From positions 9,809 through 73,808 of the forward strand of contig JAZRZN010000096.1 in NCBI GenBank assembly GCA_045601365.1: a DNA stretch of 64,000 nucleotides, written 5' to 3'. A program made the position numbers and the translations under genes. Positions 31,951-62,796 of the stretch are shown here, piece by piece. The notes under the pieces were generated by a model that saw only the letters and a program-made list of their open reading frames with translations, was not told where the DNA came from and made no database searches. Positions within the stretch are counted from its first letter, which is position 1, and each line of letters begins with the position of its first letter. Source of the DNA: Clostridia bacterium (GTDB lineage: Bacteria; Bacillota; Clostridia; Christensenellales; QALW01).

Positions 31951-32013
31951 TTTTATCAAAAACTCCTTCTTTATTTTTTAGGGGAAGACGGGCTTCCCCT
32001 GTTTTACAAAGCC

Positions 32014-39247: not shown

Positions 39248-39251
39248 CGGA

Positions 39252-46377: not shown

Positions 46378-48224
46378 TTTTTCTTACCTCTTGTATTCAT
46401 ATTATTTTTGCCGCGCCCCGATGTGCGCGGCTTTATAAGGCAGTTTTCGCCAAAGCCGATAAGGTCTTGTCTGCCCGCCTGAATAAGCGCCCTTTTAACG
46501 GTTTCGTAATTTTCGGGCTTTCCGTATTGCAACAGCGCCCTCTGCATTATTTTTTCGGGTATTGATTTTGCAACGTAGATGCTTTTCATCGTACGCGGGT
46601 CTTTTTCGGTATAGTACATGCAAGTTGAAAGCGTACCCGGCGTAGGATAAAATTCCTGCACCTGCTCCGGATTTATGTGATGCTTATGAAGATACTCCGC
46701 AAGGCGCACCGCTTCCTTAAGGTCACTGCCCGGATGCCCGGAAATCAAATACGGCACAAGGTACTGTTCTTTTTGAATCTGTTTATTCGTTTCGGCATAT
46801 CGCCTGCAAAATTCATTATATACCTTTTCGCCCGGCTTGCCCATAAGTGAAAGCACCTTATCGGAAATATGCTCGGGCGCGACCTTCAGCTGCCCCGAAA
46901 CATGATACTCGCACAGCGTTTTCAAAAATTCGTTGCCATGCTGTCTGTCGGCGAGCATGCAGTCGAACCGCAGTCCCGAACGGATGAATACTTTTTTGAC
47001 CTTCGGCACATCGCGCAAGCGCTTCAACAGCTTCATGTATGGCGTGTGGTCGGGCTTGAACGCCGGGCATATCTGCGGATAAAGGCACTGCCTGTCCGTG
47101 CAAGCGCCTGCTTTTTTCTGTTTTTCACAGCCCTGCCCATAGAAATTCGCCGTCGGTCCGCCAACATCATGTATATAACCCTTAAAACCCGGGAGCGTCG
47201 TCAACAGCTCGGCTTCCTCAACGACCGAATCCTCACTCCTGCTTTGAAGCACACGCCCCTGATGGAACGTTATCGCGCAGAACGAGCATGCACCGACACA
47301 GCCGCGATTTGCGGTTATCGAAAACTCGACCTCGCTTATTGCGGGTATGCCGCCGAGCGCATCGTACATCGGATGCGGTCTGCGTGTGTACGGAAGTGCA
47401 TATACCGCATCAAGCTCACTTTGTGAAAGGGGCTCCGCAGGAGGATTTACAGCAACATATGATTTACCGTGCTTTTGCAAAAGTGTTTTTCCGCTTACAT
47501 GATTCTGATTGTTGTACTGCGTCATAAACGCTCTGCAATACGCATCCCTATCTGTCTTTACCTGTTCAAAACTTTCGATCTCGACCGCATCGTACACATT
47601 TTCAGCATTTTCGGTAAGATACGCCGTACCGTTTATATATGTGATATCTTTTATTGAAAGCCCGCTGTCAAGCGCGTCTGCAAGCTCAACTATAGTCCGT
47701 TCTCCCATGCCGTACATAAGCAGATCTGCCCCGCTGTCAACGAGTATCGACGCGCGAACCTTGTCGTCCCAACAGTCATAGTGAGCAAAGCGACGCAGGC
47801 TCGCCTCAACACCGCCGATGGCGATAGAAGCGTTTTTGTACGCCTGTCGGATGCAGTTACAGTAAACTATGTCGGCTCTGTCCGGGCGCATTCCCGCTTT
47901 ACCGCCCGGCGAATATGCATCGCTGCTGCGCCGTTTGTGCGCCGCGGTATAATGATTCACCATCGGATCGATATTCCCCGACGAAACAAGAAACGCAAGC
48001 CGCGGTCTGCCGAACTTTTTGAATGCGTCGATATTACGCCAATCGGGCTGTGCAAGGATAGCTACTTTATAGCCGTGGCTCTCAAGCACCCGTGAAATTA
48101 TCGCCGGGCCGAAGCTCGGATGATCGACATAAGCGTCGCCTATAACATATACAAAATCCGGTCTGTCCCACCCGCGTTCAATGCATTCCTCAAGTGTGAC
48201 CGGCAAAAATCCACCGTTAAGCAT
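46368..48224 (-). CDS. ygiQ: YgiQ family radical SAM protein
   Basis: N-terminus FLPVTLEE...GDAYVDHPSFG and radical-SAM cluster motif CVGACSFCAITFHQGR. Start ATG 48224 (AAGGAA RBS) is preferred over the ORF-track GTG at 48251. Confidence 0.85.
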   Translation of the reverse strand: MLNGGFLPVTLEECIERGWDRPDFVYVIGDAYVDHPSFGPAIISRVLESHGYKVAILAQPDWRNIDAFKKFGRPRLAFLVSSGNIDPMVNHYTAAHKRRSSDAYSPGGKAGMRPDRADIVYCNCIRQAYKNASIAIGGVEASLRRFAHYDCWDDKVRASILVDSGADLLMYGMGERTIVELADALDSGLSIKDITYINGTAYLTENAENVYDAVEIESFEQVKTDRDAYCRAFMTQYNNQNHVSGKTLLQKHGKSYVAVNPPAEPLSQSELDAVYALPYTRRPHPMYDALGGIPAISEVEFSITANRGCVGACSFCAITFHQGRVLQSRSEDSVVEEAELLTTLPGFKGYIHDVGGPTANFYGQGCEKQKKAGACTDRQCLYPQICPAFKPDHTPYMKLLKRLRDVPKVKKVFIRSGLRFDCMLADRQHGNEFLKTLCEYHVSGQLKVAPEHISDKVLSLMGKPGEKVYNEFCRRYAETNKQIQKEQYLVPYLISGHPGSDLKEAVRLAEYLHKHHINPEQVQEFYPTPGTLSTCMYYTEKDPRTMKSIYVAKSIPEKIMQRALLQYGKPENYETVKRALIQAGRQDLIGFGENCLIKPRTSGRGKNNMNTRGKKKWK

Positions 48225-48324
48225 ATTATTTCCTTTTATTATTGATGGCACTATTATATGTTAATTCAGCGCAAAAGTCAATTCGTTTTAAGGCGTGCAG
48301 ATGCAATACGGCTTTCGACACTGC

Positions 48325-48356
48325 AAAAAAATCCGCCGTGGAGATCCACAGCGGAT
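48325..48356 (-). terminator. Rho-independent terminator ending the ABC importer locus
   Basis: On the minus strand: ATCCGCTGTGG-ATCTC-CACGGCGGAT (one mismatch) followed by TTTTTTT (plus-strand A-run 48325-48330). It begins 10 nt past the stop at 48366. Confidence 0.75.
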
Positions 48357-48365
48357 GATTTGTTT

Positions 48366-49403
48366 TTAGCCTACCATACCTGATCTTTCGATACTCTGAA
48401 CGAAGAATCTCTGGCAGAAGCAATAAAGGATAACAATAGGTGCGATGTGCATAACGGTACATGCCGCCTGATACAGAGAGCTTAGTACCGCGTCGCCCGT
48501 AACGCCAAGCACCGAGCTGACATATTTGCCGCCCATGCCCAGCATTTGTGTGGACATAACTTTTGCCGTCGGGTTCAGTATCTGGATATACTGCGTATCG
48601 TTATACTGCCATACGAACGCGAACAGGAATACCGTTACGAGCATTGGCAACGCACTCGGAAGCATTACCTGCACAAATGTACGGAAAGGACCTGCGCCGT
48701 CGATATAAGCGGCTTCCTCCAATTCCTTGGGCTGGTTGATGAAATACTGACGCAGCAGGAATACGAACAGACCGTTGCGATACATGGTTGCCGTGGCGCT
48801 CAAAAGTCCTATAGCCGTCCAACCGCGGGTAAGGTCGATATTCGGTATTCTGTAAAGCTGTTCGCCGAACGTGAACATATACAAGGGGTTAAACGTCTTG
48901 TATCTGAACATCATCGACTTTGTCAGCATCTGCACCGGTACCATAAGTGTGAAGATGCACATGAGGAAGAAGAAGTTATTGCCCTTGAATTTGAATCTTG
49001 CAAGCCCGTATGCAACAAACATGCACGAACACATCTGCACGAGCGCGAACGCAAGCGATGATGTAAATGAAGCAAGATACAGTGTAGGTATCTTCGCGAA
49101 CTTCCACATTGCCACATAGCTGCTGACGTTTAATGAACGCGGGATAAGAATTACCGTCGGGTCATAAACGTCTGCCGATGTCATAAACGAAGTAATGAGT
49201 GTTATGAGCATGGGATATATTACGAGGTAACATATACCGAGCAAAAGAACGAATCTGAGCAATCCCCAAATTATATCAAATGTACGCTTTCCGAAAATCG
49301 CACGTTTGAATTTCTGCCACGGAGTAAGTACGGGTATGACGAAGTTATCGACTTCTTCTGCGCCGACTTCATTTGTCAGCTTTACTTTGTCTGCTTTTTC
49401 CAT
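48366..49403 (-). CDS. Carbohydrate-type ABC transporter permease (second pair, MalG-like)
   Basis: 345 aa, multi-pass. EAA loop EAAYIDGAGPFRTFVQVMLP. Confidence 0.85.
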   Translation of the reverse strand: MEKADKVKLTNEVGAEEVDNFVIPVLTPWQKFKRAIFGKRTFDIIWGLLRFVLLLGICYLVIYPMLITLITSFMTSADVYDPTVILIPRSLNVSSYVAMWKFAKIPTLYLASFTSSLAFALVQMCSCMFVAYGLARFKFKGNNFFFLMCIFTLMVPVQMLTKSMMFRYKTFNPLYMFTFGEQLYRIPNIDLTRGWTAIGLLSATATMYRNGLFVFLLRQYFINQPKELEEAAYIDGAGPFRTFVQVMLPSALPMLVTVFLFAFVWQYNDTQYIQILNPTAKVMSTQMLGMGGKYVSSVLGVTGDAVLSSLYQAACTVMHIAPIVILYCFCQRFFVQSIERSGMVG

Positions 49404-49415
49404 ATCCGCACCCCC

Positions 49416-50309
49416 TTAGTTCTCATAATAAACAAGCTTTGAAATGATTCCCGCGACAACGCTTATCACTATCGCCGTCATAAGGAAGTACATCCAGCTC
49501 ATCGCCATTATATCGACCTGGTCAGCCTGACCTTCCTGCGAAAAGAGGTATCTGAGCATCGGATTGCTCATTCCGCAAAGAACATCTATCATCGAATATA
49601 CAGCGTTAACGAGGATCATCGGGCTTATCATCGGGAAAGTTATCTTCCAGAAGTTTTCCCAACCTGTTGCACCTTCGACCTTTGACGATTCAAATATTGA
49701 AGGTGAGATGGTTTGCAGACCCGAAAGGAAAATCAGTGTAGGAACACCTGCACCGTTGATTATCGAAGTAAGCTTGTCAAAAGCCTTACCGATAAAATCA
49801 CCGAACGCACCGCCTATCGAGTTTTGTATACTGCCGGCAAGGTTCATCGCCTGTGAACCGACAGATGCCATCTGGTTTGCATCAACAGCGCCTTCAGCGC
49901 CGAGGAGCGAAGCCGCAACGCCCGCCGAAGTTATTACAGGCATGAAAAGTATCGCTCTGGCAAGTGTTCTGCCGTGGAAATTCTGGTTAAGGATATTCGC
50001 CATAAGGAAGCTGAATATCAGGATCGACGGAACCATTATCAACAGATTTCCGCCCGAAGAAAGCAGATTGTTGATGAAGTTCGCCTGAGCCGTAAATGCA
50101 TCTATATAGGCTTGGAAGCCGTATGGCTGAATGCCTATAACGTTTGTGACATCATCGAACGTCTGAGTATTGAACGAAAGTACAAGCGCCGTATACAACG
50201 GTGAAAGCACAAAGAATATCAGACCGATGATAAAGGGAAGAATAAACAACCAACCCGATAATGAACGGCGTGTCATCAATCCCAATTTATAGGTTCTCGG
50301 TTTTTTCAT
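49416..50309 (-). CDS. Carbohydrate-type ABC transporter permease (second pair, MalF-like)
   Basis: 297 aa, multi-pass. Degenerate EAA loop ESSKVEGATGWENFWKITFP. Confidence 0.8.
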   Translation of the reverse strand: MKKPRTYKLGLMTRRSLSGWLFILPFIIGLIFFVLSPLYTALVLSFNTQTFDDVTNVIGIQPYGFQAYIDAFTAQANFINNLLSSGGNLLIMVPSILIFSFLMANILNQNFHGRTLARAILFMPVITSAGVAASLLGAEGAVDANQMASVGSQAMNLAGSIQNSIGGAFGDFIGKAFDKLTSIINGAGVPTLIFLSGLQTISPSIFESSKVEGATGWENFWKITFPMISPMILVNAVYSMIDVLCGMSNPMLRYLFSQEGQADQVDIMAMSWMYFLMTAIVISVVAGIISKLVYYEN

Positions 50310-53023
50310 TACTTAATTCCCCCTTTCGCAAACGAGTTAGCCTTGACGACTGTTCCGTCATCAGCGGTATAATCAAAATCGTTGTAATTGATATATACCG
50401 AAACTCCGTTACCGTATGTAACCTTGCTGACATCTTCGGCAACGGTCTCATGTGATGTCATAAATTCACCCGAAACCGAAGAAAGCAGATCATTGTATTC
50501 CTTATACATTTCAACCGCATTATCGAACCATGAAATGTAACTGAGTGAATACATGCCGTCAAAGAGCAGATCTTTTACCTGATCGTTCGGAACGTAGCAC
50601 CAGCGATAATACATTCCCGAGCCGGCTTCAACTGCCTGAAGGAACGCTGTACGCGCATCGCCGTTCAGATTGATCGGTTCACCCGAATACTGTATGCAAC
50701 CGTGAATTACCATCTGATAGAACGGGATCGAATAATCCGCAAGATTGAACATACTGCTCGTATTGCTTATTTCGAAAATACTGTCAACATTTTCAAGGAG
50801 GAAACCGTTGCCGCCTTTGACCATAACATCCATGCTTTCGGCAAACTTCGCGGCAACCGCTTTATAAGTATCGGCAACATTCGTCCTGTCATAGAAATCC
50901 TTGATCTTGTAGTTGCCCGGGAGATTCCAACCGAGACTGCCGAGGCTTACATGCTTGATGTTAAGCTCTGCAAGGTCGTTAAGCACCTTGATGGCGTTGC
51001 TCTTGCTGTTGTCCTCTGCCTTCGTGTTGTAGATGACCGACGGTGAAACTATTGTCGCCGCACGCTCATTATCAATAAGGTTCCAATCGACCCAATACTG
51101 ATTATGATAAGCTATATCTCTCGTTACAAGTCTCGATGCCTGTGTAAGCTGGCTGTAGCCGTCGAACATCTTTGATTTGTAAACAAGCGCAAGCTCGGTC
51201 TCAAAGTAAAGCTTTACGCCGAGGCTTTCGGCAAGCTCAAGCAGATCCGAAAGACCGTTCTTTCCGCCAAGTGCCTTAAGCACATCCACCTTACTGTAGC
51301 AGGTGTTCATAAGACCGTTATTCGCCCAACCTTTGTAGTTGATCGAAATATTCTTGATGCCCGCGTCGCTGAGCTTCTTAATAAGCTCACCGCACTGATC
51401 GAACGTTGTCAGCGCACGCATCTCGGTATAGCTTACACCGAGGAACGCAGTATCGTGGTCATAAGCTCCGATAAGCTCGATGTTGAACGGAATATCCGTG
51501 AATTTCTGCTGTTTAAGCACTCCCGACTTTATGAGATAATTGCGGTAATACTCAGCCATGCCGTTGTAATTTGCCTTTTCGCCGTTCAGAACGGTGTAAG
51601 TTACCGAAATATCAGCCGAGTTCATCGTATTCTGATAAATTCTCGATGTCTTGCCGGCATTTTTGAACTGAAGCTCCTCATATTCCGCCATCTTAAAGCT
51701 TGTATAGCATTTATTGCGATCCATCGTGTTCTGTTTCTTGCCGGCGATATCCGAGATTATTGTCGCGTTCTCGTCACCGCTCTCGATTATGGCGAACAGC
51801 GCACTCGCGTCCTTTTTGATGCCGAATACCGGGAGGTATGCACTTTGGTTCGCAAAAGGCTTCTTCAGCTTTTCGCGTCCGTCATCAAGCCCGTAAAGCT
51901 GTATTCTCAAGTCACCGGGAATATTGGTTTTACCGTTGTTGAAGTTGATTATCGCGCCTGAGCCGTCGGGAACGAACATATACCCTTGTTCGTTCTTTGA
52001 TGCCGATCCGAAATACTGCAACAGATTGATCGACGCTATTGCAAATGTCGAAGTATCATACTGTATTTCGTCATTCGGTATCGTAACATTAAGACCGTTC
52101 TCGGTGAGCTTGTAGTCAACGGGTATCCAGAAGTTCTTGGCAGGATCGGCAACAACGCCGAACTCGTCATTTATCGCATCACGTTCATCAACATTCATGC
52201 CGATAACTTCAGTGAAGCCCTTCTGGAGCTGACTCATAACCTGAGCATTGTTCCACTTGTTTTTATCGCCGATGATATAGACCGTCTTGCCTTCTTTTAT
52301 GAAGTCACCCATATTCGGTGCGATCGCAAGCAACTCATCCTGTCTGTCAGAGGGATAAGACGCCCATGTTTTCGGCGATATTTTTGAATATATGCTTCCG
52401 CCGCTTATATACTTGGAAACCGCAAGGAAGCCTTCTGTTTTTTTAAGCTTGTCGATGTACTCCGTTGCTCTTTCTTCGTCGAGGCAGGTCGGAATAACGT
52501 AATCCGCCTTGACCTGACCGAGGATGTATATAACGCGAAGGTGTCCGTCATGGTTTACGATGTAATACTGATGAAGACCGCTTTCGTTATCTTCCTTCTC
52601 ATTCATCACGCAATCCATGAAGCTTTCAAGCATTTTCTGGCTGCCGTCGGTCTTATTCAGATAGAACAGAGTTACCTGACTGCTCATTTCACTCTTTATA
52701 CCTGCTTCGCGATCTGACGGTGAGGGGTTTGAATACCATGTTTCGCCGCTCTTCTTGTCACGGAGAGCTATTTCGAGGATAGTTTTATTGAAATACAACT
52801 CGTAGTTGTCATTCTCCTCAACAAGCGTAAATTCGGTATTCTTCGCTTCGTCATCATCCTGACGGATCATTGTCTTTGCGTCTTTCTTAAATTCAAACAG
52901 CTTTTCCGTATTCGTCGGAGTAATGAAGCCTTCGCTCTCTTCGGTTGTACAACCCGTTGTGAATGCCACTACCGAAACGAGCATAACGGCAACAAGTAAA
53001 GCAGAAATGATTTTATTTTTCAT
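50309..53023 (-). CDS. Large extracytoplasmic lipoprotein (904 aa), DUF5696-like by context
   Basis: Start ATG 53023 with GGAGG 9 nt upstream. Lipobox FTTGC. No catalytic motif recognised by eye. The DUF5696 label is recalled from similar Firmicutes loci and is not verified here. Confidence 0.7.
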   Translation of the reverse strand: MKNKIISALLVAVMLVSVVAFTTGCTTEESEGFITPTNTEKLFEFKKDAKTMIRQDDDEAKNTEFTLVEENDNYELYFNKTILEIALRDKKSGETWYSNPSPSDREAGIKSEMSSQVTLFYLNKTDGSQKMLESFMDCVMNEKEDNESGLHQYYIVNHDGHLRVIYILGQVKADYVIPTCLDEERATEYIDKLKKTEGFLAVSKYISGGSIYSKISPKTWASYPSDRQDELLAIAPNMGDFIKEGKTVYIIGDKNKWNNAQVMSQLQKGFTEVIGMNVDERDAINDEFGVVADPAKNFWIPVDYKLTENGLNVTIPNDEIQYDTSTFAIASINLLQYFGSASKNEQGYMFVPDGSGAIINFNNGKTNIPGDLRIQLYGLDDGREKLKKPFANQSAYLPVFGIKKDASALFAIIESGDENATIISDIAGKKQNTMDRNKCYTSFKMAEYEELQFKNAGKTSRIYQNTMNSADISVTYTVLNGEKANYNGMAEYYRNYLIKSGVLKQQKFTDIPFNIELIGAYDHDTAFLGVSYTEMRALTTFDQCGELIKKLSDAGIKNISINYKGWANNGLMNTCYSKVDVLKALGGKNGLSDLLELAESLGVKLYFETELALVYKSKMFDGYSQLTQASRLVTRDIAYHNQYWVDWNLIDNERAATIVSPSVIYNTKAEDNSKSNAIKVLNDLAELNIKHVSLGSLGWNLPGNYKIKDFYDRTNVADTYKAVAAKFAESMDVMVKGGNGFLLENVDSIFEISNTSSMFNLADYSIPFYQMVIHGCIQYSGEPINLNGDARTAFLQAVEAGSGMYYRWCYVPNDQVKDLLFDGMYSLSYISWFDNAVEMYKEYNDLLSSVSGEFMTSHETVAEDVSKVTYGNGVSVYINYNDFDYTADDGTVVKANSFAKGGIK

Positions 53024-53038
53024 TTTTTCCACCTCCCG

Positions 53039-53680
53039 TTACCTTCTCAGCTCAAGCTCGCGGTATATCGTGTAGCCGAAGTTCCATATTTCCTGCACAA
53101 GGAAGAAGAACATCATGCCGAGGAACACGATTACCACCATGCCGAGCAGAATAACGATAAGCGTAAGGAACGTTTTTCCGCCGGAATACTGGTGCGTCGT
53201 CATCGTACCTGTATACAGGAGGATCGCCGTCCACCCTATGCCTATGTAGGTCACAAGAGAAACGATCGTCGCCTCATTCGATGTGAGGATATTCGTAAGC
53301 GGAAGAAGCAGTATTTGCGAAAGCACTATCGGGAGCATTGAATATCCCGTATAGAGCAGGATGTCCTTCATACTGCCTTCACCGTCGAACAGTGTCGTAA
53401 GTCCCCAGTTGGAGGCTACCCATATTATAACGACGAGCGCTACTTTTACGAATGTGCCTATGATGTTGATGTTTTCGGGGAAAACCCTGTCAGCGTTGAA
53501 GTAGTAGTTATCAAACTGCTTGTCGAGGATGCTTGTGATAACGTAAAGGACTATCATCAGAATAGCAATGTAGGTCTTTCCTCTTTTTTCATGTTTAAGA
53601 TCCCAGAAACCGTCAAGCGGGTGTGTGGCGACATGAAACGTATACAAAAGGTCCTTGCCGAATGTTTTAAGCTTTCCCAT
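53039..53680 (-). CDS. Yip1-domain integral membrane protein
   Basis: 213 aa. N-terminal HPLDGFWDLKHEKRG followed by five hydrophobic spans. ATGA-type overlap with the upstream stop. Confidence 0.7.
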   Translation of the reverse strand: MGKLKTFGKDLLYTFHVATHPLDGFWDLKHEKRGKTYIAILMIVLYVITSILDKQFDNYYFNADRVFPENINIIGTFVKVALVVIIWVASNWGLTTLFDGEGSMKDILLYTGYSMLPIVLSQILLLPLTNILTSNEATIVSLVTYIGIGWTAILLYTGTMTTHQYSGGKTFLTLIVILLGMVVIVFLGMMFFFLVQEIWNFGYTIYRELELRR

Positions 53681-55485
53681 TATTCAGGTCTTCCTCCCGT
53701 CTTGATGAATTTCTTGAACTTCTTATACCAGCCGAACAGCACTGCCGCTACCGCAACAACTATGATACCCGTCATGAGATACGGCATGATATCCTCAAGC
53801 ACCTTATCGCGGTACTTATAGAATGCTTTACCGTATTCATCCTGCGAATAGCCCTTCATGAAGTAATCCGCCGCATCAAGGTAACCCTGACGTTGTTTAT
53901 CGGAATCAAGCTCCTCGGCGGCATCCATGTAAAGCACCTTGCCGACACCGCGGTATGCAAGCGATGAGTTCGATGACATGCCGAGTATCTTGTTCCACGA
54001 TTCAACGGCATCCTCATACCGCCGTTCCTCATGGCTGTTTACAGCTTCTCTCATGATAAGCCCGTATTCGGTGGGAACGTAAGTCGTCATCTGTGCGCCT
54101 TCGGAGTCAAGTATCACTATCGTCTGGTCATCAAGCAGAAGCTCTATAGCAGTCGGTGTAAGGCTCGTTCCCTTTGTAAAGCCGACCTGCTCTTCACGGG
54201 TGACGTTATCAAGTTCTTCGCCCGTTGTCGTAAGTCGCTGACCGAGTGCGCCGAAGACGTACAGCAGCTCACCGGTGCTTGTATAAGTAAATACTCTTCC
54301 TTTCTGGGAATCAAGTATGCTTGAAAGTCCGTTTTCGGAAACCGCAACATCTACTATATATGAATACGTTGAACGGTTAGCGCCGTCGCCCTCGTCGCCC
54401 GAGGGAGGTATGATACCCTGACGCTGTAAAACGTCCGAGCCCGCGGCGTTGAGCTTTCTGAGCGCCGCGCCGACCTCCGAGCTGCTGGTGAAATGCGATT
54501 TGAGGTCTTCAACGGCAAGCTGTGATATCGTGCCGTACACAAAGCCTTCCGCATCAAGTGCTACATTACTGTATACAGTGGAAAGGTTTTGCTGCATAAG
54601 CTCCTTCGCCTTAGCGGTGAACAGACGGTTAAGCAGTGACGAAAGTGTCTGCTTTGTTTTGGTCGCACCGAAGAACTTGGTGAAATTGCCGTCCTTATCA
54701 AGCTCTACAAGTCCCTGATAGCAATCCTTCGAAACAACGAACATTCTCATTGAATGGTCGATAACTATCTTCAAAGGCTTATAAGTTATATCGGAAACCG
54801 ATGATGTGCCGGTAGTCTCATTCGTGTTTATTTCTTCGTCGGCTTCACCGCCTTCCGTATTTTCGGCAGCGTCGGTATTTTCCGTTTCATCGGTAGTGAC
54901 ATTTTCGTCAGTCTCCGCATCGGCGGGAGCTTCCTCGCCTTCGCCTTCGGTTTCCGCGTCGGGATCAAAGGTCTTGGAGAAATACTGTGAGATATCGGGA
55001 TCGTCGAATGTTCTGTCGAAGCTGAACAATCCGGCTTCGATATCAAATGTAAAGCGTACTATGCGTTTGTTATCCGTATCGCAGACATAAAGCATATGTT
55101 CTTCATCGTAAAAGTCGATGCCGTTGGGTGATGCGAAACCGTCTTCCGTACCGTTGTTATCCCAATTCTTTATTATCTGCTTAACAGTGTGCATGTCTTC
55201 ATCAAGCACGATTATGCGGTTATTGCCCGTATCGGATATAATGATGTTGCCGTTATAATCGAACTGCTTCATATCCTGCGGATTGCTCATCGGCACTCCG
55301 TCAAGACTTTCAACACCGATCGAGCCGCTGTCGATGACCGTATCGGGAACATACGCCTGCGGCTCGGGATAGAAGCCCGATTCCGTTATCGTATAGTTCT
55401 GATACGGTGCGGCGAACGATGTTACCGAAACCGTCAGTGCGATCACGGCGGTAAGCGCAATACAAGTAAATTTCTTTAATTTCAT
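53680..55485 (-). CDS. NHL-repeat protein with signal peptide, acidic low-complexity insert and C-terminal TM anchor
   Basis: 601 aa. NHL-type strands (NGNIIISDTGNNRIIVLDED, LYVCDTDNKRIVRF). Asp/Glu/Thr-rich stretch (ETDENVTTDETENTDAAENTEGGEADEE). C-terminal helix plus a KKFKKF tail. Confidence 0.75.
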   Translation of the reverse strand: MKLKKFTCIALTAVIALTVSVTSFAAPYQNYTITESGFYPEPQAYVPDTVIDSGSIGVESLDGVPMSNPQDMKQFDYNGNIIISDTGNNRIIVLDEDMHTVKQIIKNWDNNGTEDGFASPNGIDFYDEEHMLYVCDTDNKRIVRFTFDIEAGLFSFDRTFDDPDISQYFSKTFDPDAETEGEGEEAPADAETDENVTTDETENTDAAENTEGGEADEEINTNETTGTSSVSDITYKPLKIVIDHSMRMFVVSKDCYQGLVELDKDGNFTKFFGATKTKQTLSSLLNRLFTAKAKELMQQNLSTVYSNVALDAEGFVYGTISQLAVEDLKSHFTSSSEVGAALRKLNAAGSDVLQRQGIIPPSGDEGDGANRSTYSYIVDVAVSENGLSSILDSQKGRVFTYTSTGELLYVFGALGQRLTTTGEELDNVTREEQVGFTKGTSLTPTAIELLLDDQTIVILDSEGAQMTTYVPTEYGLIMREAVNSHEERRYEDAVESWNKILGMSSNSSLAYRGVGKVLYMDAAEELDSDKQRQGYLDAADYFMKGYSQDEYGKAFYKYRDKVLEDIMPYLMTGIIVVAVAAVLFGWYKKFKKFIKTGGRPE

Positions 55486-55500
55486 AAATACGCTCCCTCC

Positions 55501-56346
55501 TTAATCCTTCATACCTGACGTAGCCATCGTTTCGATAATGTTGCTCTGAGAAATGATGAACATCACTATCGGCACAAACATCAGTATTACCGTTACGGCA
55601 TTCGCTACGCCCTGACGCGCTATACCGGTCGAAACTATCTGGTTGAGCGCGTAAGGCAATGTCTTTAATTGCTCACTTTGAATGAATACCGAAGCACCGA
55701 GGTTCCAGAGGTTCTGCACCGAGAATATCATAAGTGTCAGCCATGCTGATTTTACCTGCGGAAGCACTATCGACCAGAATATTTTGAAGCTTCCCGCGCC
55801 GTCGATACGCGCGGCTTCTATAAGCGACTTCGGTATCTGGCTCATGAACTGCTGCATGAGGTACATACCCATCGAAGCACCGAACGTCGGGATGATTATC
55901 GCCCAATAGGTATCTATCATGCCGAGACGTGCCTTTATCATGAACAACGGGATCCAAAGCACCGTACCGTTGAACATAAGAGAAGTAACGATCATGCCGG
56001 AGATGAACTTTCTGCCCGGAAAGTTATAGAGCGAAAGCGGATATGCGCACATCGAGCAGAAAACTATCTGTCCGAATGTACCGACCGAGGTAATCAACAG
56101 TGTGTTGAAGAAATATCTCGTAAACGGTACCCATGAATTACCCATCAGCACGAACAGGTCCGTATAGTTGTTGGTGACCCAACGGTTTGGCAGAAGCGTC
56201 GGAGGGAATTTGAAAAGCTCATCCATAGGTTTGAAGGAGTTTCCGACCGCATACACCATGGGCAGTACCATCAGGCATGCAACTATGCACAGGAATGCGA
56301 TTCCGACAAAATTACCCGCGCCGGAGCGGTTGAGTTTTTTTGCCAT
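55501..56346 (-). CDS. Carbohydrate ABC transporter permease (first pair, MalG-like)
   Basis: 281 aa. EAA loop EAARIDGAGSFKIFWSIVLP. Confidence 0.88.
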   Translation of the reverse strand: MAKKLNRSGAGNFVGIAFLCIVACLMVLPMVYAVGNSFKPMDELFKFPPTLLPNRWVTNNYTDLFVLMGNSWVPFTRYFFNTLLITSVGTFGQIVFCSMCAYPLSLYNFPGRKFISGMIVTSLMFNGTVLWIPLFMIKARLGMIDTYWAIIIPTFGASMGMYLMQQFMSQIPKSLIEAARIDGAGSFKIFWSIVLPQVKSAWLTLMIFSVQNLWNLGASVFIQSEQLKTLPYALNQIVSTGIARQGVANAVTVILMFVPIVMFIISQSNIIETMATSGMKD

Positions 56347-56348
56347 GC

Positions 56349-57296
56349 TTACTCACCCACCTTCGAAAGTAATTTTTTGATTATCTTATTGGTAACGATC
56401 ATCATAAGGAACAGCAGTACCGCGATCGCGCAGGCATAACCAAGCTCCATTCGGTTATTGGCGTAGTCCTCCATGTGGTGGATAAGCGTATTGGCAACGT
56501 AGTCCTGCGACGGGAAGCCGACGAGGTTCGTTATCTGTGCGCCTACCGAGAATGCACCGGTGATGCTCATTACAGCACCGAACATAAGCTGAGGCTTCAT
56601 ATAAGGAAGTGTTATGAACCACAGCTCCTGCCATCTGTTCTTTACGCCGTCTATCGCGCCCGCCTCATAAAGAGTGCGGTCAACGTTCTGCAAGCCGGCG
56701 ATGAATGTAAGGAAGCTCGTGCCCAAGCTCGACCACAATATAACTATCAGACAGCATGGGACGATGTAATTGACATCTTCAAGCCATTTGATGTTGGTGA
56801 GCGTGATGCCGGTATTCATAAGGAAACCGTTAAGCAAGCCGTACTGGTCCGATGAAAAGATTATCTTCCATACGGGGTAAACACTTGCAAGGCTGGGCGC
56901 GTAATAGAACAGTGTCATTACGGCTCTCGTTCTTCTGCCAAGCTCATTTATGAGCCAGGCGAAGAACAGTGACATGAGATATCCGCCGGGACCTATGATG
57001 ACCGCGAAGAATATCGTGTTCTTGAACGATGTCATGAACAGGTCATCGGCAGTGAAAAGTCTTATATAGTTTTCCCATCCGGTGAATACCGGGGGCTCAA
57101 GCACGTTGAAGTATGTGAAGCTGAAGTAAATGGCAACGAATACCGGAAGCACCGTAAATACTATAAATACCAACAAATACGGAAGCATAAAGAGGTAAAG
57201 GCTGCCGCTCTTGCGCATCTCACGGAATTGGTAGTGAAGCCAATCCGCGAAAAATGACTTCTTTTTAGGCTGAGCGAGTTCTTGTTCGTTAGTCAT
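56349..57296 (-). CDS. Carbohydrate ABC transporter permease (first pair, MalF-like)
   Basis: 315 aa. EAA loop YEAGAIDGVKNRWQELWFITLP. Confidence 0.88.
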   Translation of the reverse strand: MTNEQELAQPKKKSFFADWLHYQFREMRKSGSLYLFMLPYLLVFIVFTVLPVFVAIYFSFTYFNVLEPPVFTGWENYIRLFTADDLFMTSFKNTIFFAVIIGPGGYLMSLFFAWLINELGRRTRAVMTLFYYAPSLASVYPVWKIIFSSDQYGLLNGFLMNTGITLTNIKWLEDVNYIVPCCLIVILWSSLGTSFLTFIAGLQNVDRTLYEAGAIDGVKNRWQELWFITLPYMKPQLMFGAVMSITGAFSVGAQITNLVGFPSQDYVANTLIHHMEDYANNRMELGYACAIAVLLFLMMIVTNKIIKKLLSKVGE

Positions 57297-60200
57297 TATC
57301 CTTTACTTCCTTTCGGTTTAGTCATTTCGACGATCTTGTCGGCAAATTCTTCACGCTTACGCGCTATTTCCTGGTTGATCTTGCTGACGTACTCAACGAA
57401 TGTCGTATTCGGGTCGGTATCATTGTTGATAACTTCCTTCCATGCGAACTCGATGTTACGCGCTGTATAGTAACCGCCGGGAACCTGAGGTACTGCCTTG
57501 GCATGCTCCCACTGGAGCTGTATCATGCTCATGGATTTCTTATCCCACGGCAATCTTGCCATAGCCTTCAGGTTTGCGGTCTGATAACGTGCCGCCGCGC
57601 CGAGCAAGCTTTCGATCTCGGTACCGAAGCGGTACTGCGCGTCATCGCCGGTCCACCATTTCATGAATTCCCATGCACGCTTTGCTCTGTTCATACCTTT
57701 TTCGGTAGTGGTATCTATCGAAAGCATTACGCAACCGCTCGTAGAGCTTGCGCAGGAGTGATCCACAACAAGCTCGCCGTTTTCATCATAGAGCTTATTG
57801 CCGTTCTCGTCATACTGTACCGTGCCGGGAACAAGAGAGAATTCCCAAAGTCCCTGTATTTCGGGAGCAAATACGGCAAGCTGTGAATACTGACTGTAGC
57901 TTGCGATACCTACCGGAACCTCACCAGTTCTGAAACGGTTGGAGAAATCGTAGGTATTCGGAAGATCGTAAAGTGTGTAGAACTGAGTCCATTCCTTGAA
58001 GGCGTCAAGCGCCGGATCGGAAGTCAGGTCAGTCGTCACACGGTCATCCGTGTAATACTTTCCGCCCTTCTGATAAAGAAGCATTGCATAGGAAAGGTTA
58101 CCGCTTCCTACCGCACCTACTACGGGAACGGGCATTGCGAACGTCATCTGTTTGTTCTGCAATTCGCCGATGATGAAGTAAACATCTTCCCATGTCTGCG
58201 GAGGCTCAAGTCCCATTTCGTCAAGGATATCGGTACGGTAGAATATCATGTAGAAATCCTGCGTTTCGGGCACGGCATAAATTCCGTTACCGAATGTGAA
58301 GGGGTCTACCGCACTTGAAGCAAATCTTTCGGTATTGCAAAGAATATCCGCGTAATCGGGGAACAGCTCTTCGTCAGCCAGATTCATTACCGCGCCGCGG
58401 AATGCATAGTTGACCGCCGCCTCAGCATTACGTGAAAGACATATCTCGGGACCTATTCCCGAAAGCACCGAGGGAAGAAGCGAGCCGCCCGCAACAAGTC
58501 GCGTGCTGACCATTATTCCCGATTCGGTCGTAAACATATCGTCGATAAGCTGTTTAAGTATGGTAGCGTTATCGCGCGAGCCGGTAAGACCTGCGCCGGT
58601 CTCAAGCCATACTATAACGGGATCCTGACCGTCGGTCGAAACGGTGCCGCCGATGTTGTCGTAGTCCTCTGTGAATGATGCTATGAACGAGCGTATCTCG
58701 TGGAACATCTTCGCAAAGAATCCGGCATCGGCATTCGGTATCTGCTTGGCGTTGATGGCTTCTTCGGTCGTAACCGCCAAGTAATCGATCTCAAGCGGGT
58801 TCTCACTCATGTCGTTTATCCATGTACCCATCGCGGCGATGGCATCCTTGAAGTTTCCGAACAGAGTGTTTATCTTTGTATAGTCGCCGTCTATCTGCTT
58901 AAGGATAAGTATCATGTTCTTGATGCTTGAAAGCTGTGCGCTTGCGCTCTTGCCGAATACTTCGACAAATTCAGCCTCAAGGTCAAGAAGATGACCGTAT
59001 TCAACATGTATTATGCTGAGTGCATCCGGCACCATGGTGTTGAGCATGTAGTCGGCGTTCGCGTCGGGTGTTGAGCCCGTTATCATAAGTATACGTCTGT
59101 ACGCAACGTTAAGCTGAGTAAGTATGCTCTGAGCTTCCGCAAGCATATCACCGAGGTCGCCGAGCGTCGTCTCAAGACGTATCTTGTTCTTGCCTTCGTT
59201 AAAGTAGAAGTAATATGTGCCGTTCTCCTCATCACCGAGAAGGTAGTTGGAGAATGAGTTATCATATTGGAATTGCAGGTTACCGGCTTCAAGACATGGC
59301 TGTACACCGTTTATCGTAAGCTTACGGGTAGTGTACATACCGTTAAGAGTGTTCTGGCGTGCCTTGAAGTTGATGGCATAAAGACCCGCTTTTTCTACCT
59401 CTACCGCCCACTCTACCCACTCGTTGGGGCTCTGCCACTTATCCGCACCGATAGTATTGTATCTTATCTTGCTGTGATGGTACGGTGCCGTAACGGGAGA
59501 CGATCTGTCTGTTATCGCATAAAGCGTCGGCGATGACTTGAGGATATCATATGTAACATCCTTCGTTGCATCGTATGCGGTAGTATCAACAGGGTCGATA
59601 TAATTATTATACTTATTGATTATATCCGTGTTAAGGAATGTATCCGCCTGCTTGCCGGTATACGTTGACGGATCGTGCAGACCTTCAGCCTGAATGAATA
59701 CCGTCTTGACGCCCTGTGCCTTTGTATATCCCGCGGCGGCATATTCCTTTGCAAGCTCGGCATAAGACGGTGCCGCTTCTATCTGATGGATCTTTGCAAA
59801 CTCAACGACCATGCCTTCCTTTACGGCTTCGAAGGCAAGGACATGCGTGCCTGCTTCAAAATAGAATTTGAAGGGTTCAAGCTCGTAGCCCATATAGTCG
59901 CGGACGGATACCTCCTGCCACTGACCTGTCTCCTGCTGATAGGGACGCTTTTCGTTCAGTGTCTGAGAATCTACCGTCAGAAGTCCGGAATCCTTCCATA
60001 CTCTTTCAAAGTTTACCTGTCTGGCCTCATAGAAAGGTACTTTGCCGTCGATGTAGACTTTTCTCTGCACTGCGGAGCTTTTACTTTCGGTGGTGTACTG
60101 CACACCGTCTTTTTCGTAAGTAAGCTCATCGTAGGCGAAATACGAAAGAGTAATGTTATATAAGCCGGATGTTTTTACATCAAACTTCCAGCCGCATATT

Positions 60201-60592
60201 CCTTCGTCATAGAACAGTGCGCCCTCACGGAGATCTTCGGGTGTGTTGTCTGCGGCGACCTTGACGATCGGAAGTGTTCCCTTGTTTTCTCCCGTCTCGC
60301 CGTCAAATTCAACAGCTTCCTTTCCGCTTAATACGATCTGTTCTTCCGGCAAAGCCGCGTCCTTATATTTACCGCGATATACCGCATAGTCATCATTGGT
60401 ATCGACTTTACCGTTGAATGCTGCGGTATCGGTAATATCAGCCGCTTCTTCGCCTTTTTGATCTTCTGTTGCGTTTATCTGCTGTTCTCCCGATGTGTCA
60501 TCCGGTGCAGCGAACGATACGCATGCAAGCACCGATAGCACCATTGAAGCTACGAGAACAAAGATAAGCGCTTTGTTAAGCAAAGACTTCAT
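57296..60592 (-). CDS. Giant extracellular solute-binding protein (1098 aa) with a ~655-aa N-terminal extension
   Basis: Signal peptide with a possible lipobox (VLACVS). The last ~440 aa look like a family-1 sugar SBP (PVIVWLETGAG...QTWEDVYFI...FMKWWTGDDAQ). The first ~655 aa lie outside the SBP fold. It is the first gene of the importer operon. Confidence 0.8.
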   Translation of the reverse strand: MKSLLNKALIFVLVASMVLSVLACVSFAAPDDTSGEQQINATEDQKGEEAADITDTAAFNGKVDTNDDYAVYRGKYKDAALPEEQIVLSGKEAVEFDGETGENKGTLPIVKVAADNTPEDLREGALFYDEGICGWKFDVKTSGLYNITLSYFAYDELTYEKDGVQYTTESKSSAVQRKVYIDGKVPFYEARQVNFERVWKDSGLLTVDSQTLNEKRPYQQETGQWQEVSVRDYMGYELEPFKFYFEAGTHVLAFEAVKEGMVVEFAKIHQIEAAPSYAELAKEYAAAGYTKAQGVKTVFIQAEGLHDPSTYTGKQADTFLNTDIINKYNNYIDPVDTTAYDATKDVTYDILKSSPTLYAITDRSSPVTAPYHHSKIRYNTIGADKWQSPNEWVEWAVEVEKAGLYAINFKARQNTLNGMYTTRKLTINGVQPCLEAGNLQFQYDNSFSNYLLGDEENGTYYFYFNEGKNKIRLETTLGDLGDMLAEAQSILTQLNVAYRRILMITGSTPDANADYMLNTMVPDALSIIHVEYGHLLDLEAEFVEVFGKSASAQLSSIKNMILILKQIDGDYTKINTLFGNFKDAIAAMGTWINDMSENPLEIDYLAVTTEEAINAKQIPNADAGFFAKMFHEIRSFIASFTEDYDNIGGTVSTDGQDPVIVWLETGAGLTGSRDNATILKQLIDDMFTTESGIMVSTRLVAGGSLLPSVLSGIGPEICLSRNAEAAVNYAFRGAVMNLADEELFPDYADILCNTERFASSAVDPFTFGNGIYAVPETQDFYMIFYRTDILDEMGLEPPQTWEDVYFIIGELQNKQMTFAMPVPVVGAVGSGNLSYAMLLYQKGGKYYTDDRVTTDLTSDPALDAFKEWTQFYTLYDLPNTYDFSNRFRTGEVPVGIASYSQYSQLAVFAPEIQGLWEFSLVPGTVQYDENGNKLYDENGELVVDHSCASSTSGCVMLSIDTTTEKGMNRAKRAWEFMKWWTGDDAQYRFGTEIESLLGAAARYQTANLKAMARLPWDKKSMSMIQLQWEHAKAVPQVPGGYYTARNIEFAWKEVINNDTDPNTTFVEYVSKINQEIARKREEFADKIVEMTKPKGSKG

Positions 60593-60924
60593 GTTTTTCC
60601 TCCTGAAAAATTTTGCTTTCCGCTACGGTGACTTTCCCGTCTGCCGCGGCGGAAAAGGGTACACTTTTGCAGAGTGATACATAATATCTACTGTATGATA
60701 CCACCAAGAAACGAAAAAGTCAATATCCAACATTAAATTTTTTGTTATAATGTCGAAGCCGGTTGCGCGCGTTTTATGCCGAATTTACGGGCAATTTATT
60801 TTTTCTTCGCCATCAGTTAAAAAATAATTTACATTTATCTTTCATCTCAAGTACCGCTTTATCGGCGCAGATTTTCCTTTTATTATTTTTACTGCGATTC
60901 GCGTTGTTTTTTTCATTTTAGGTA

Positions 60925-60953: not shown

Positions 60954-61002
60954 TATCAGTGACAATTCAGGAACTTTTTCCGGCGTATGTGAGGTGTTTA
61001 TC

Positions 61003-62796
61003 ATGAAAACACTAAAACAACTGTTCCATTATTTCACACCTTATTTGGGTATCATGGTACTGTACTTGTTTATGGGTGCTTTGATAGTGTCGTTGGCTAT
61101 GCTTTTGCCAATGATAACAAAGTACATCATATCGTCAGTTATCGGTGATGCTCCTTTTTCGATTTTGGGAATAAGCATAACCGATAAGGGGCAACTTTTC
61201 CTGTGGCTCGCTCTGGCATGGATAACGATAATCGTTGTCCGTCAGGGGCTTGCATACCTGCGTTCGTATCTCATGACGAACAGCTCGATAAAGGCAGTAT
61301 GCAAAATGCGCGAAGATGTTTTTCAAAAAATGCTGTGGCAGTCCAAGACATTCATGCGCAACGAGAACACCGGCAACATTCTCACTGTCATCAACGGCGA
61401 TACCGAAATGATAAAGACTTTCATCACCGGCACGATCCCGGCTATCATCGAAGCGCTGTTCGGCTTCATCTTCGCCAGCATAATGATAGGCAGAATGAGC
61501 TATATAATGGTTATAACCGCATATATCTTTACCGTGCCGCTGTTCATATTCTCGCGCAAGTTCAGCAAAGTGTTTTATAAGTGGTATCATTTCGTGCGTG
61601 AATCAAGCGCCGAGTTGAGTACCGTTACACAGGAAAACCTCAACGGTATAAGGATAGTAAAGGCGTATGCGCAGGAGGAGCAGGAAAAAGTCAAATTCGA
61701 GAAGAAGAACGATCTTTTCCGCTATCACGCAATAAATTATATGGTAATATGGGGTAAAAATTTCATTCCCTTCGGCGTAATAAGCTATCTGCCCAACATC
61801 GTGCTGACCGCCGTCGCCGCCATGCTCGTCATCAACGGCAAAAACGGCTTCATGGGTATTTCGCAGACGATGCAGCTTGCGGAATTTGTTGCCATAGGCG
61901 GATATGTCGGCTATATCCTCGTTCCGTTCCAGAATGCCAATAACTGGCTCAATCAGGCACAGCAGGCAGTGACAAGTGCCGAAAAGGTCTGCAACTTCAT
62001 CAATTCCGGCTCGCTTATCGCATCAAAGCCCAACGCAAAAAAGCCCGACGTTTCATCGGTTGACATCAAGCTTGAAAACGTAAGCTTTTCGGTAAACAAA
62101 AAGGTTATATTAAAAGATGTCAATATTGATCTTCCGCAGGGCAAATCGCTCGGTATAATGGGCACGACCGGAAGCGGAAAGACTGTTATAACCACGATGA
62201 TGGCTCGCTTTTTCGATCCTACAAGCGGCAAGGTAACTGTAAACGGCATTGATGTGCGTGATATTGATCTGAACACACTGCGTTCATGCTTCGCGCCTGT
62301 TTTGCAGGATGTGTTCCTGTTCTCCGATACGATAGCCAAAAACATCGCATTCGGAAAGCCCGACGCAACTTTTGAAGATGTGCGCAGATGTGCAGAGATC
62401 GCTCAGGCACATGATTTCATCACCGAAACGCCCGATGAATACAACACTATCGTAGGCGAACGAGGAATGGGGCTTTCCGGCGGACAAAAGCAACGTATCT
62501 CTATCGCAAGAGCATTGCTCTATGACGCACCCGTGCTTGTTTTTGACGATGCCACAAGTGCGCTTGACATGGAGACCGAGCAAAAGCTTTATGCGGCGCT
62601 CCGTTCCGACGGGAGCAACAGAAGCCACATAATAGTTGCACACAGGATATCCTCGCTCAAGGATTGCGATGAGATCATCGTTATGGATCACGGCAGTATC
62701 GTTGAGCGCGGAACGCATGATGAGCTTGTCGCGCTCGGCGGGCTTTACTACGACATTTACAAGGAACAGTACGGCACTGTTCTTGATGCGATGTAA
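61003..62796 (+). CDS. ABC exporter, fused permease/ATP-binding subunit (heterodimer partner 1)
   Basis: Six-TM N-terminal half. Walker A GTTGSGKT, signature LSGGQKQR, Walker B VLVFDDATSALD. Start ATG 61003 with a GAGGTG RBS. Confidence 0.92.
   Translation: MKTLKQLFHYFTPYLGIMVLYLFMGALIVSLAMLLPMITKYIISSVIGDAPFSILGISITDKGQLFLWLALAWITIIVVRQGLAYLRSYLMTNSSIKAVCKMREDVFQKMLWQSKTFMRNENTGNILTVINGDTEMIKTFITGTIPAIIEALFGFIFASIMIGRMSYIMVITAYIFTVPLFIFSRKFSKVFYKWYHFVRESSAELSTVTQENLNGIRIVKAYAQEEQEKVKFEKKNDLFRYHAINYMVIWGKNFIPFGVISYLPNIVLTAVAAMLVINGKNGFMGISQTMQLAEFVAIGGYVGYILVPFQNANNWLNQAQQAVTSAEKVCNFINSGSLIASKPNAKKPDVSSVDIKLENVSFSVNKKVILKDVNIDLPQGKSLGIMGTTGSGKTVITTMMARFFDPTSGKVTVNGIDVRDIDLNTLRSCFAPVLQDVFLFSDTIAKNIAFGKPDATFEDVRRCAEIAQAHDFITETPDEYNTIVGERGMGLSGGQKQRISIARALLYDAPVLVFDDATSALDMETEQKLYAALRSDGSNRSHIIVAHRISSLKDCDEIIVMDHGSIVERGTHDELVALGGLYYDIYKEQYGTVLDAM

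Follow-up and report, generated by a model that had tools for sequence, protein, structure and literature searches.

The question raised by positions 48366-60592 of the stretch of DNA studied here, 64,000 nt from a Clostridia bacterium (the window, in what follows), is what a sugar transporter might be for when its operon, on the minus strand, holds two permease pairs, one giant receptor, three further envelope proteins and no ATPase gene. Gram-positive bacteria of the gut and the soil obtain plant-fibre fragments mainly through ATP-binding cassette (ABC) sugar importers, which are seen as machines of four parts: a solute-binding protein (SBP), two permeases and an ATPase. Our reading, in which we place slightly more than even confidence, is that this operon encodes a cell-surface apparatus for the capture and import of glycans that is made of two modules, A and B, and that relies on an ATPase supplied in trans. 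Its most likely cargo is fragments of plant glycans.

The operon consists of eight tightly packed minus-strand open reading frames (ORFs), with intergenic gaps of -1 to 15 nt. The original prediction, which a model had made from the letters of the window, claimed nine genes, but its own list also holds eight. Its domain calls have proven correct, since Pfam recovers BPD_transp_1 in four proteins as well as the NHL, Yip1 and DUF5696 domains. Hydropathy, from which we called transmembrane segments and signal peptides, agrees with its description of a five-segment Yip1 protein and of an NHL protein with a signal peptide and a single C-terminal transmembrane helix. It is also the case, as it had stated, that the operon lacks a nucleotide-binding subunit. 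In order of transcription, the genes are:

57296-60592 (-): receptor of module A, 1098 aa, with two predicted modules resembling carbohydrate-binding modules (CBMs), a helical bundle and a family-1 SBP domain, membrane-tethered
56349-57296 (-): P1F, 315 aa, UgpA/MalF-like permease of module A, EAA motif kept
55501-56346 (-): P1G, 281 aa, UgpE/MalG-like permease of module A, EAA motif kept
53680-55485 (-): NHL protein, 601 aa, with signal peptide, propeller, helices resembling tetratricopeptide repeats (TPR), C-terminal transmembrane helix (566-584) and basic cytoplasmic tail
53039-53680 (-): Yip1-family protein, 213 aa, five transmembrane segments, its gene overlapping the NHL gene by 1 nt
50309-53023 (-): DUF5696 lipoprotein, 904 aa, lipobox FTTGC (Pfam, AlphaFold2, Foldseek)
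49416-50309 (-): P2F, 297 aa, divergent permease of module B, BPD_transp_1 match at the cut-off, its start overlapping the DUF5696 stop
48366-49403 (-): P2G, 345 aa, UgpE/MalG-like permease of module B with an N-terminal extension, EAA motif kept

Relatives of this cassette were sought by scanning a DUF5696 alignment against 185,579 species-representative genomes, one per species, which yielded at least 589 matching stretches. The best 80 of these (L001-L080), together with five further look-ups of divergent members, make up the 85 loci of our neighbourhood analysis. Among the best 80, the order giant SBP, P1F, P1G, NHL, Yip1, DUF5696, P2F, P2G is kept wherever the contig extends far enough, with the exception of L046: all eight genes stand separately in 55 complete loci, NHL and Yip1 are fused in 12, and almost every other locus is truncated by the end of its contig. 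The five divergent look-ups agree with this picture. The hosts include uncultured Clostridia, Oscillospiraceae, Lachnospiraceae, Mahella, Defluviitaleaceae, Paenibacillus, Cohnella, Bacillus and Lederbergia, and the proteins of the cassette share only ~30% identity among relatives. Among the relatives of the window's genome, one (JAZRXI01) is 90% identical to it. Because it is conserved in 85 other loci, the arrangement goes beyond chance. The co-occurrence of NHL, Yip1 and DUF5696 genes in Firmicutes, which the original prediction had mentioned, is real and very strong in these 85 loci, and the conserved gene order excludes a strain-specific insertion between unrelated transporters.

The cassette is also modular. 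In L082 (6087-19241) the modules are permuted, so that an SBP, NHL, Yip1, DUF5696, P2F and P2G come first, followed by the giant SBP, P1F and P1G; L046 (3536-14617) has module B only, with an ordinary SBP, amid rhamnosidase genes of glycoside hydrolase (GH) families GH78 and GH106. These two loci make modules A and B separable, and the NHL/Yip1/DUF5696 trio, which is never found apart from P2F/P2G, appears from gene order to go with the second permease pair in a module that can be separated. Two cassettes are present in some genomes (L059/L064, L015/L066, L033/L070). The permuted locus and the solitary module B could be taken to mean that the operon is simply two independent sugar transporters with three unrelated envelope genes in between. 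This we find scarcely credible, as it is contradicted by synteny: except in L046, the modules remain adjacent in all loci with enough contig, across classes of Bacillota and at the low identity mentioned above. Moreover, in 46 of 75 loci the DUF5696 gene shares exactly 4 nt with that for P2F, the sort of overlap that can couple translation, and the genes for NHL and Yip1 overlap in 63 of 65. Together with the NHL-Yip1 fusions, these overlaps argue for one co-translated assembly.

In module A, the singular element is the receptor. The 1098-aa protein itself has no Pfam match. Its residues 673-923 match family-1 sugar SBPs in the Protein Data Bank (PDB; phmmer, best Lin1841 5ysb, E 3e-6), and its N-terminal 670 residues, used as a query, retrieve 83 homologues that are 930-1150 aa long except for a few fragments, most of them with a C-terminal SBP_bac_1 or SBP_bac_8 domain (PF01547/PF13416). 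We modelled residues 1-670 with AlphaFold2, as we did the 904-aa protein, and searched for fold matches with Foldseek. The model (predicted local distance difference test, pLDDT, 84.6) contains two sandwiches and a bundle of long helices. The sandwiches match 2w1w, 2w47, 2cdp, 7ehg, 2vzp and enzymes bearing CBM35 modules (E 3e-7 to 1e-3, target TM-scores 0.55-0.69), and two of the homologues have a precomputed Pfam match to CBM_35 (PF16990). Because of the parts seen in the model, the Foldseek matches to CBM35 and CBM6 and the CBM_35 hits of the homologues, the giant SBP is predicted to be a tethered fusion of the form CBM-CBM-spacer-SBP, with the following parts:

59783-60415 (-): first beta-sandwich, CBM35/CBM6-like, ~residues 60-270 of the 1098-aa protein (AlphaFold2, Foldseek)
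59165-59545 (-): second beta-sandwich, CBM35/CBM6-like, ~residues 350-476 (AlphaFold2, Foldseek)
58805-59155 (-): long-helix bundle, probable spacer, ~residues 480-596 (AlphaFold2)
57299-58576 (-): family-1 (CUT1-type) SBP domain, residues ~673-1098 (phmmer against the PDB, Pfam matches of homologues)

The tether would be provided by the N-terminus, which has a signal peptide and lipobox. In the clade of the window the latter is lipobox-like, of the form L-A/S/T-C, and the Paenibacillus proteins have an N-terminal hydrophobic segment without that cysteine. An acidic linker follows the signal peptide of the giant SBP in the same clade that has an acidic insert in the NHL protein, described below.

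All four permeases match PF00528 (BPD_transp_1) and the UgpA/UgpE/MalG models, the score of P2F (26.4 bits) being equal to the Pfam cut-off. Each of the four keeps its EAA motif in about 75 orthologues, and the EAA-type motif of P2F, E-x2-K-x-E-G-A-T...FWKITFP, is kept in 76 sequences. This conservation suggests that selection maintains the ability of both pairs to dock an ATPase. No MalK/MsmX-like ATPase is encoded in the operon, in the 64-kb window or in any of the 80 related loci, and the only ABC ATPase domains in the window are those of the fused exporter genes from 60994 onward. Supply of the ATPase subunit in trans is an established pattern for the CUT1 family, many importers of which are energised in this way by MsmX in B. 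subtilis, MsmK in streptococci and MsiK in Streptomyces.

The accessory proteins of module B begin with a secreted propeller and a membrane partner that are at times a single protein. The 601-aa protein scores 28.3 bits with NHL (PF01436, cut-off 20 bits), and the profile of its family matches the NHL propellers of Pizza, PknD and TRIM71 in several stretches (E 6e-60 to 1e-24), with TPR repeats after the propeller. Judging from the Pizza and PknD templates, the propeller would be six-bladed. All NHL orthologues end in a conserved helical motif, one transmembrane helix and a basic tail. The 213-aa protein matches Yip1 (PF04893) over residues 16-186 with 68.3 bits against a cut-off of 28.6, and has five hydrophobic segments. 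NHL and Yip1 form a single polypeptide in 12 of the 80 loci and in L081, hence in at least 13; Pfam finds both domains in the fused proteins of L039 and L046, and TPR as well in that of L039, and the NHL and Yip1 hits of L081 are precomputed. The topology of such fusions fits, as it runs from ectodomain through transmembrane helix and cytoplasmic linker to the five helices of Yip1. Since they are fused in some species, NHL and Yip1 are likely to form one unit with six transmembrane helices where they are separate too. YknW, a Yip1 protein of Bacillus, is an assembly factor of an ABC transporter (PMC4887032). Our literature searches on Yip1 with NHL and on Yip1 with Paenibacillus found nothing relevant. 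In the window, the NHL protein has an acidic, low-complexity insert of ~55 residues (D/E/T/N-rich) between blades, at residues ~174-228 (nt 54802-54966), which among 18 aligned orthologues is present only in the window and its two closest relatives.

The third accessory protein, the 904-aa lipoprotein, matches DUF5696 (PF18952) with 583.3 bits against a cut-off of 25.6, over profile positions 6-612 of 612. DUF5696 is a large family, of 4,106 clusters at 50% identity (E <= 1e-30), and we found no literature on DUF5696 or PF18952; NCBIfam has no specific name for this protein nor for the 213-aa one. The gene starts with the ATG at 53023, 8 nt downstream of GGGAGG; we rejected a start at the GTG at 53032, which would give 907 aa, because this codon falls within the ribosome-binding site. 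The AlphaFold2 model (pLDDT 89.7, predicted TM-score, pTM, 0.86) shows a (beta/alpha)8 barrel at ~residues 510-810, flanked by beta-sandwich domains on its N-terminal side and by one more beta-sandwich on its C-terminal side, an architecture of GH129, GH101 or GH31 type. Foldseek places first the GH129-like 3,6-anhydro-D-galactosidase DagB 5opq (E 1e-31), then the GH129 enzyme NagBb 5wzn (E 6e-24), followed by GH101, GH31 and GH36. The profile of the DUF5696 family reaches DagB 8rzk/5opq by sequence alone (E 2.6e-7), and when DagB-like genes recovered from marine metagenomes were aligned and compared with the DUF5696 family by profile-profile hhalign, the match had a probability of 97.4% over 420 columns. 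Other sequence searches were silent: the 904-aa protein alone had no match in the PDB, a sub-profile of the C-terminal half of the barrel (A3) gave only chance matches there, and a protein search from a DagB fragment found no match, although in the scan of metagenomes that fragment was effective. From these alignments we regard DUF5696 as a remote GH129-like homologue with what seems to be a different conserved site, and we have not filed it as GH129.

Column statistics for this putative site come from an alignment of 333 family members. The near-invariant set comprises D353, D380, R713, N739, D763, N785, E799, H858 and N879, among which D763 and E799 are the best candidates for a family-specific site. 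Their spacing, and the look-alike 'PYFDMFEG', had made us consider them as the counterparts of the nucleophile and the acid/base of DagB and GH101, an assignment we rejected as hhalign pairs D763 with a Ser and E799 with a Leu in DagB. At two other columns, 610 and 696, which lie at the ends of barrel strands 3 and 4 (E610 and S696 in the window, nt ~51194-51196 and ~50936-50938), acidic residues are nearly exclusive: 137 sequences have one only at 696, 127 only at 610, 5 at both and 64 at neither (Fisher p 4e-36, kinship ignored). Such a pattern may reflect a relocated carboxylate or a specificity switch. The idea of a catalytic carboxylate that migrates between 610 and 696 was abandoned given the 64 of 333 sequences with neither acid and a statistic that ignores phylogeny, and we treat both columns as lineage or specificity positions.

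What the cassette might import is best approached through its neighbours in other genomes. An ordinary SBP lipoprotein of ~470 aa adjoins it on the same strand in 62 of the 80 loci, upstream in Paenibacillaceae and downstream in Lachnospiraceae and others. Within the Paenibacillaceae two types of locus occur, each represented 14 times: in the first an AraC-type response regulator, the SBP and the cassette are followed by GH10 and GH43 (with or without GDSL), and in the second a LacI regulator, the SBP and the cassette are followed by GH26 (with or without GH113). The DUF5696 proteins of the GH10/43 and GH26 types fall into separate lineages: identity is 51-58% among members of one type and 35% across types. 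As for the ordinary SBPs of xylan-type and mannan-type loci, the arabino-oligosaccharide binder 6rjy is the nearest PDB match of both, a result that does not separate their specificities. By inspection, representative GH10, GH43, GH113 and GH26 sequences have no obvious N-terminal signal peptide, which suggests intracellular enzymes that finish imported oligosaccharides. Elsewhere the cassette neighbours GH78/GH106, GH38 with a GH42-like gene, GH31, GH130, or GH127/GH35/GH43. From this variety of glycosidases, the machine appears to be re-used for different glycans. The gene set of a Gram-positive polysaccharide utilisation locus (gpPUL), that is, a transporter, a regulator and a glycan-degrading enzyme, is clearly co-located in the relatives. 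Of the three, the window has the transporter, lacks an adjacent regulator and offers DUF5696 as the sole candidate enzyme, a GH28 gene being found past the terminator and a radical SAM gene. No ordinary SBP lies within 10 kb of the cassette in the window's clade (L001-L009), nor anywhere in the 64 kb of the window. In this clade two translocons are thus encoded with one SBP. The proposal that one SBP serves both, also part of the original prediction, does not describe the usual state, as the 62 loci with an extra SBP indicate.

The regulators found beside the cassette invite another explanation, namely that the NHL propeller, the giant SBP or both mainly sense extracellular glycan on behalf of regulators, and that transport is secondary. 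The NHL protein resembles the sensor domain of PknD, an AraC-type response regulator stands beside the ordinary SBP in many relatives, and SBPs that signal to two-component systems are known, as reported for CuaD of Ruminiclostridium cellulolyticum (PMC10384115). However, the NHL protein has on its cytoplasmic side a Yip1 domain or a short basic tail, with neither a kinase nor another output domain, the regulators vary by lineage (LacI or AraC-type) and none adjoins the operon of the window. Four permeases with intact EAA motifs, besides, argue for real transport. We see only a very slight chance that sensing is the main role.

The apparatus for glycan capture and import that we favour could work as follows. 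In module A, the CBM-like modules would hold a polymeric or long oligomeric glycan away from the membrane, and the SBP domain would hand an oligosaccharide to P1F/P1G. In module B, DUF5696 would bind the captured glycan at the outer mouth of P2F/P2G and would probably trim it (or act as a receptor), with the NHL-TPR/Yip1 unit scaffolding or gating the assembly. An ATPase of MsmX/MsmK type encoded elsewhere would power both translocons. In this scheme we infer the direction of transport, the class of substrate and the contacts between proteins. The capture-and-import machine for a complex glycan that had first been imagined for this locus is partly supported: the CBM-like modules, the glycosidase fold of DUF5696 and the co-occurrence of the trio fit it.

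Several points weigh against this scheme. Its components are known here from sequence and predicted structures, and the search for an ATPase in this organism was confined to the 64-kb window. The CBM assignment is by fold alone (E 1e-4 to 3e-7, with low TM-scores over the whole query). The clade of the window has no ordinary SBP, no adjacent regulator and no glycosidase inside the operon, so that the link to glycans in the window rests on homology with relatives that do. As to DUF5696, the essential residues of DagB are D486, E517 and E531 (PMC5698469); the catalytic carboxylates of NagBb are D435 and E478. In the comparison with DagB, D486 aligns at or near columns 696-699; at column 696 the window has Ser, and 138 of 333 sequences have Asp. 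Both E517 and E531 face gaps, that of E517 next to Asn739, a position where 317 of 333 sequences have Asn, in an hhalign alignment where a local error of a few residues is possible. Finally, the same invariant residues of DUF5696 are found beside very different sets of glycosidases, which is not obviously expected of a trimming enzyme that is specific for its substrate.

Since the catalytic residues of DagB are not conserved, DUF5696 may not be an enzyme. Their loss is not proof of lost catalysis, however, because the acid/base residue already differs between GH129 and GH129-like enzymes (PMC5698469). We are evenly divided on whether DUF5696 is catalytic, and hold it to be rather less probable that it only binds. 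A more specific proposal would make it a pseudo-enzyme receptor, that is, a binder with a glycosidase fold that replaces or supplements the SBP for P2F/P2G and that is the sole receptor of the second translocon in the window's clade. Its gene occupies the slot normally held by that of an SBP, directly before the F-type permease and, in most of the 75 loci compared, in 4-nt overlap with it; the catalytic Asp and Glu of DagB are not conserved, the counterpart of E517 falling next to a near-universal Asn; the invariant residues are the same in cassettes linked to different glycans; and the nine loci of the window's clade lack an ordinary SBP nearby. But every solved protein of the same fold returned by Foldseek is an enzyme, and the invariant D353, D380, D763 and E799, together with R713, N785 and H858, are of the kind that active sites keep, and the acid/base residue differs among the GH129 relatives anyway. 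Most relatives of the cassette, furthermore, do carry an ordinary SBP. To our knowledge, no type I ABC importer uses a receptor other than an SBP. That the 904-aa lipoprotein might be a second receptor had been raised in the original prediction, and our data lend the idea some encouragement. We consider the pseudo-enzyme proposal unlikely, though it is the main rival of our reading.

An equally doubtful but broader idea is that module B represents an unrecognised class of type I ABC importer, in which a membrane-anchored glycosidase-fold protein on a Yip1-based scaffold is the receptor or a coupled processing enzyme. If this were true, module B would let long chains of glycan pass straight into an ABC channel, with or without a classical SBP beside it, and one machine would serve for xylan, mannan, rhamnosides and other glycans alike.

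The constancy of the DUF5696 invariants whatever the type of glycosidase would also fit a single, common self substrate, and hence a role in envelope remodelling. By analogy with FtsEX, ATP-driven movement of P2F/P2G might control an extracellular DUF5696 acting on the cell's own wall polymers, to open the wall for large substrates or in a non-nutritional role. That PknD-type NHL propellers act outside the cell as sensor or binding domains, and that the proteins of the module are encoded by overlapping or fused genes and tethered to the membrane, would suit such a device. On the other hand, BPD_transp_1 proteins are subunits of type I importers, whereas the known mechanotransmitting ABC systems have the FtsX/MacB fold. 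Moreover, the cassette adjoins genes typical of sugar loci, namely those for LacI or AraC-type regulators, SBPs and glycosidases, and module A is an ordinary-looking importer. For these reasons we give envelope remodelling a slight chance, and retain glycan capture and import as the preferred reading.

Around the operon, the signals of expression are as follows:

60695-60723 (-): promoter-like TTGACT-17-TATCAT with TG before the -10, ~100 nt upstream of the first gene, a consensus match only
60592 (-): ATG of the first gene, preceded by an AGGAGG ribosome-binding site
48331-48356 (-): intrinsic terminator, 11-bp stem with 7 GC pairs and a T-run, 10 nt past the last gene

The last of these is the strong downstream terminator that had been predicted, and it reads 48356-48331 in the sense of transcription, with its 11-bp stem and T-run. 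A search of the whole window with Rfam found no riboswitch or leader RNA. Directly past the terminator lies a YgiQ-type radical SAM gene (Radical_SAM_N and DUF3362; 46368-48251, -) with a promoter-like site of its own (48281-48253), and 10 nt of it are shared with the start of the GH28 gene. On the other side, divergent from the cassette, are two ABC exporter genes in which transmembrane and nucleotide-binding domains are fused (60994-62796, +, and 62797 to the window end, +). The former occupies the same position in L001-L004 and L009 and not in other clades. As its position is conserved in close relatives only, the exporter pair is probably an unrelated neighbour.

The flanks of the window hold housekeeping genes, the GH28 gene (45115-46377) and four GH140-like genes. 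The latter are paralogues with DUF5060 and apiosidase-like (GH140-type) domains within 20 kb (19151-20776, +; 26147-27859, -; 32014-37323, -; 37337-39367, -), and the product of one of them has 1769 aa, the first ~1200 of which have no Pfam match. Together, the GH28 and GH140-like genes hint at a specialisation of this uncultured gut bacterium on apiose-containing pectin (rhamnogalacturonan II or apiogalacturonan), and that the substrate of the cassette in this organism is pectic is a guess only. Between the GH140-like genes are ORFs of 787 and 836 aa (29596-31959, -, and 23613-26123, -) without a Pfam match and with a sub-threshold YdbH-like match only. Further away, a 318-aa protein (4065-5021, -) has a C-terminal type I dockerin and adjoins a 535-aa ORF (5035-6642) without a Pfam match. 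Because of this dockerin domain, the organism probably has cellulosome-like scaffolding.

Some of what we describe belongs to kinds already known, such as a CUT1 importer with its ATPase in trans and, in the relatives, Gram-positive polysaccharide utilisation loci. In the literature searched, we found no description of the fixed pairing of two translocons, of the CBM-fused SBP or of NHL-Yip1 fusions, and none of a DUF5696/NHL-TPR/Yip1 trio tied to a second translocon or of a cassette re-used beside different enzyme sets. Compared with the four-part machine, the cassette is a much larger assembly of fixed composition, present in at least 589 stretches. If the trio is a receptor, an enzyme or a scaffold on the translocon, it would change the view of how large oligosaccharides are taken up across a single membrane. 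It would also add a glycosidase-fold family to the catalogue of carbohydrate enzymes, and help to mark loci for fibre utilisation in uncultured gut Clostridia. Copies of the cassette beside mannanase or xylanase genes in Paenibacillus make the question testable in culturable strains, and P. amylolyticus (L023/L067), P. lautus (L068) and P. barcinonensis (L072) carry it.

The closest known systems are the CUT1 importers that depend on MsmX or MsmK (AraNPQ, MdxEFG, GanSPQ and YesOPQ of B. subtilis, AbnEFJ of G. stearothermophilus), which likewise combine a family-1 SBP with F and G permeases and have no ATPase in the operon. These importers take up oligosaccharides that intracellular glycosidases then degrade. 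The cassette differs in its two permease pairs, in the fusion of its SBP to CBM-like modules and a spacer, in its three extra envelope proteins and, in the clade of the window, in the absence of a second SBP. By function, it can be likened to gpPULs and to the Sus systems of Bacteroidetes, where a surface glycan binder, a glycosidase-fold lipoprotein and a transporter are also found together, with regulators and glycosidases in the relatives of the cassette. Unlike Sus, however, it has no SusC/SusD, and import would be by an ABC system over a single membrane; unlike gpPULs, it keeps the same accessory trio whatever the neighbouring enzymes, and in the window it has neither regulator nor glycosidase in the operon. 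DUF5696 itself has in common with GH129 and GH129-like enzymes (NagBb 5wzn; DagB of Zobellia, 5opq/8rzk), and distantly with GH101, GH31 and GH36, a three-domain architecture and a 'PF/LxxM/LVxH' motif. It is set apart from GH129 by an identity of ~10-13%, ~250 extra N-terminal residues, an invariant set of its own, a lipid or transmembrane anchor and its constant position beside permease genes. The NHL protein recalls the sensor of PknD (1rwi) and the Pizza designs derived from it, with an extracellular and probably six-bladed propeller on one transmembrane tether, but in place of a kinase it has TPR-like helices after the propeller and a cytoplasmic basic tail or a fused Yip1. Lastly, YknWXYZ of Bacillus also has a five-segment Yip1 protein encoded with an ABC transporter, for the assembly of which it is needed (PMC4887032). 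YknYZ is a MacB-type exporter that acts with a membrane-fusion protein, whereas the Yip1 protein of the cassette would partner a type I importer pair and is coupled, or outright fused, to an NHL/TPR protein.

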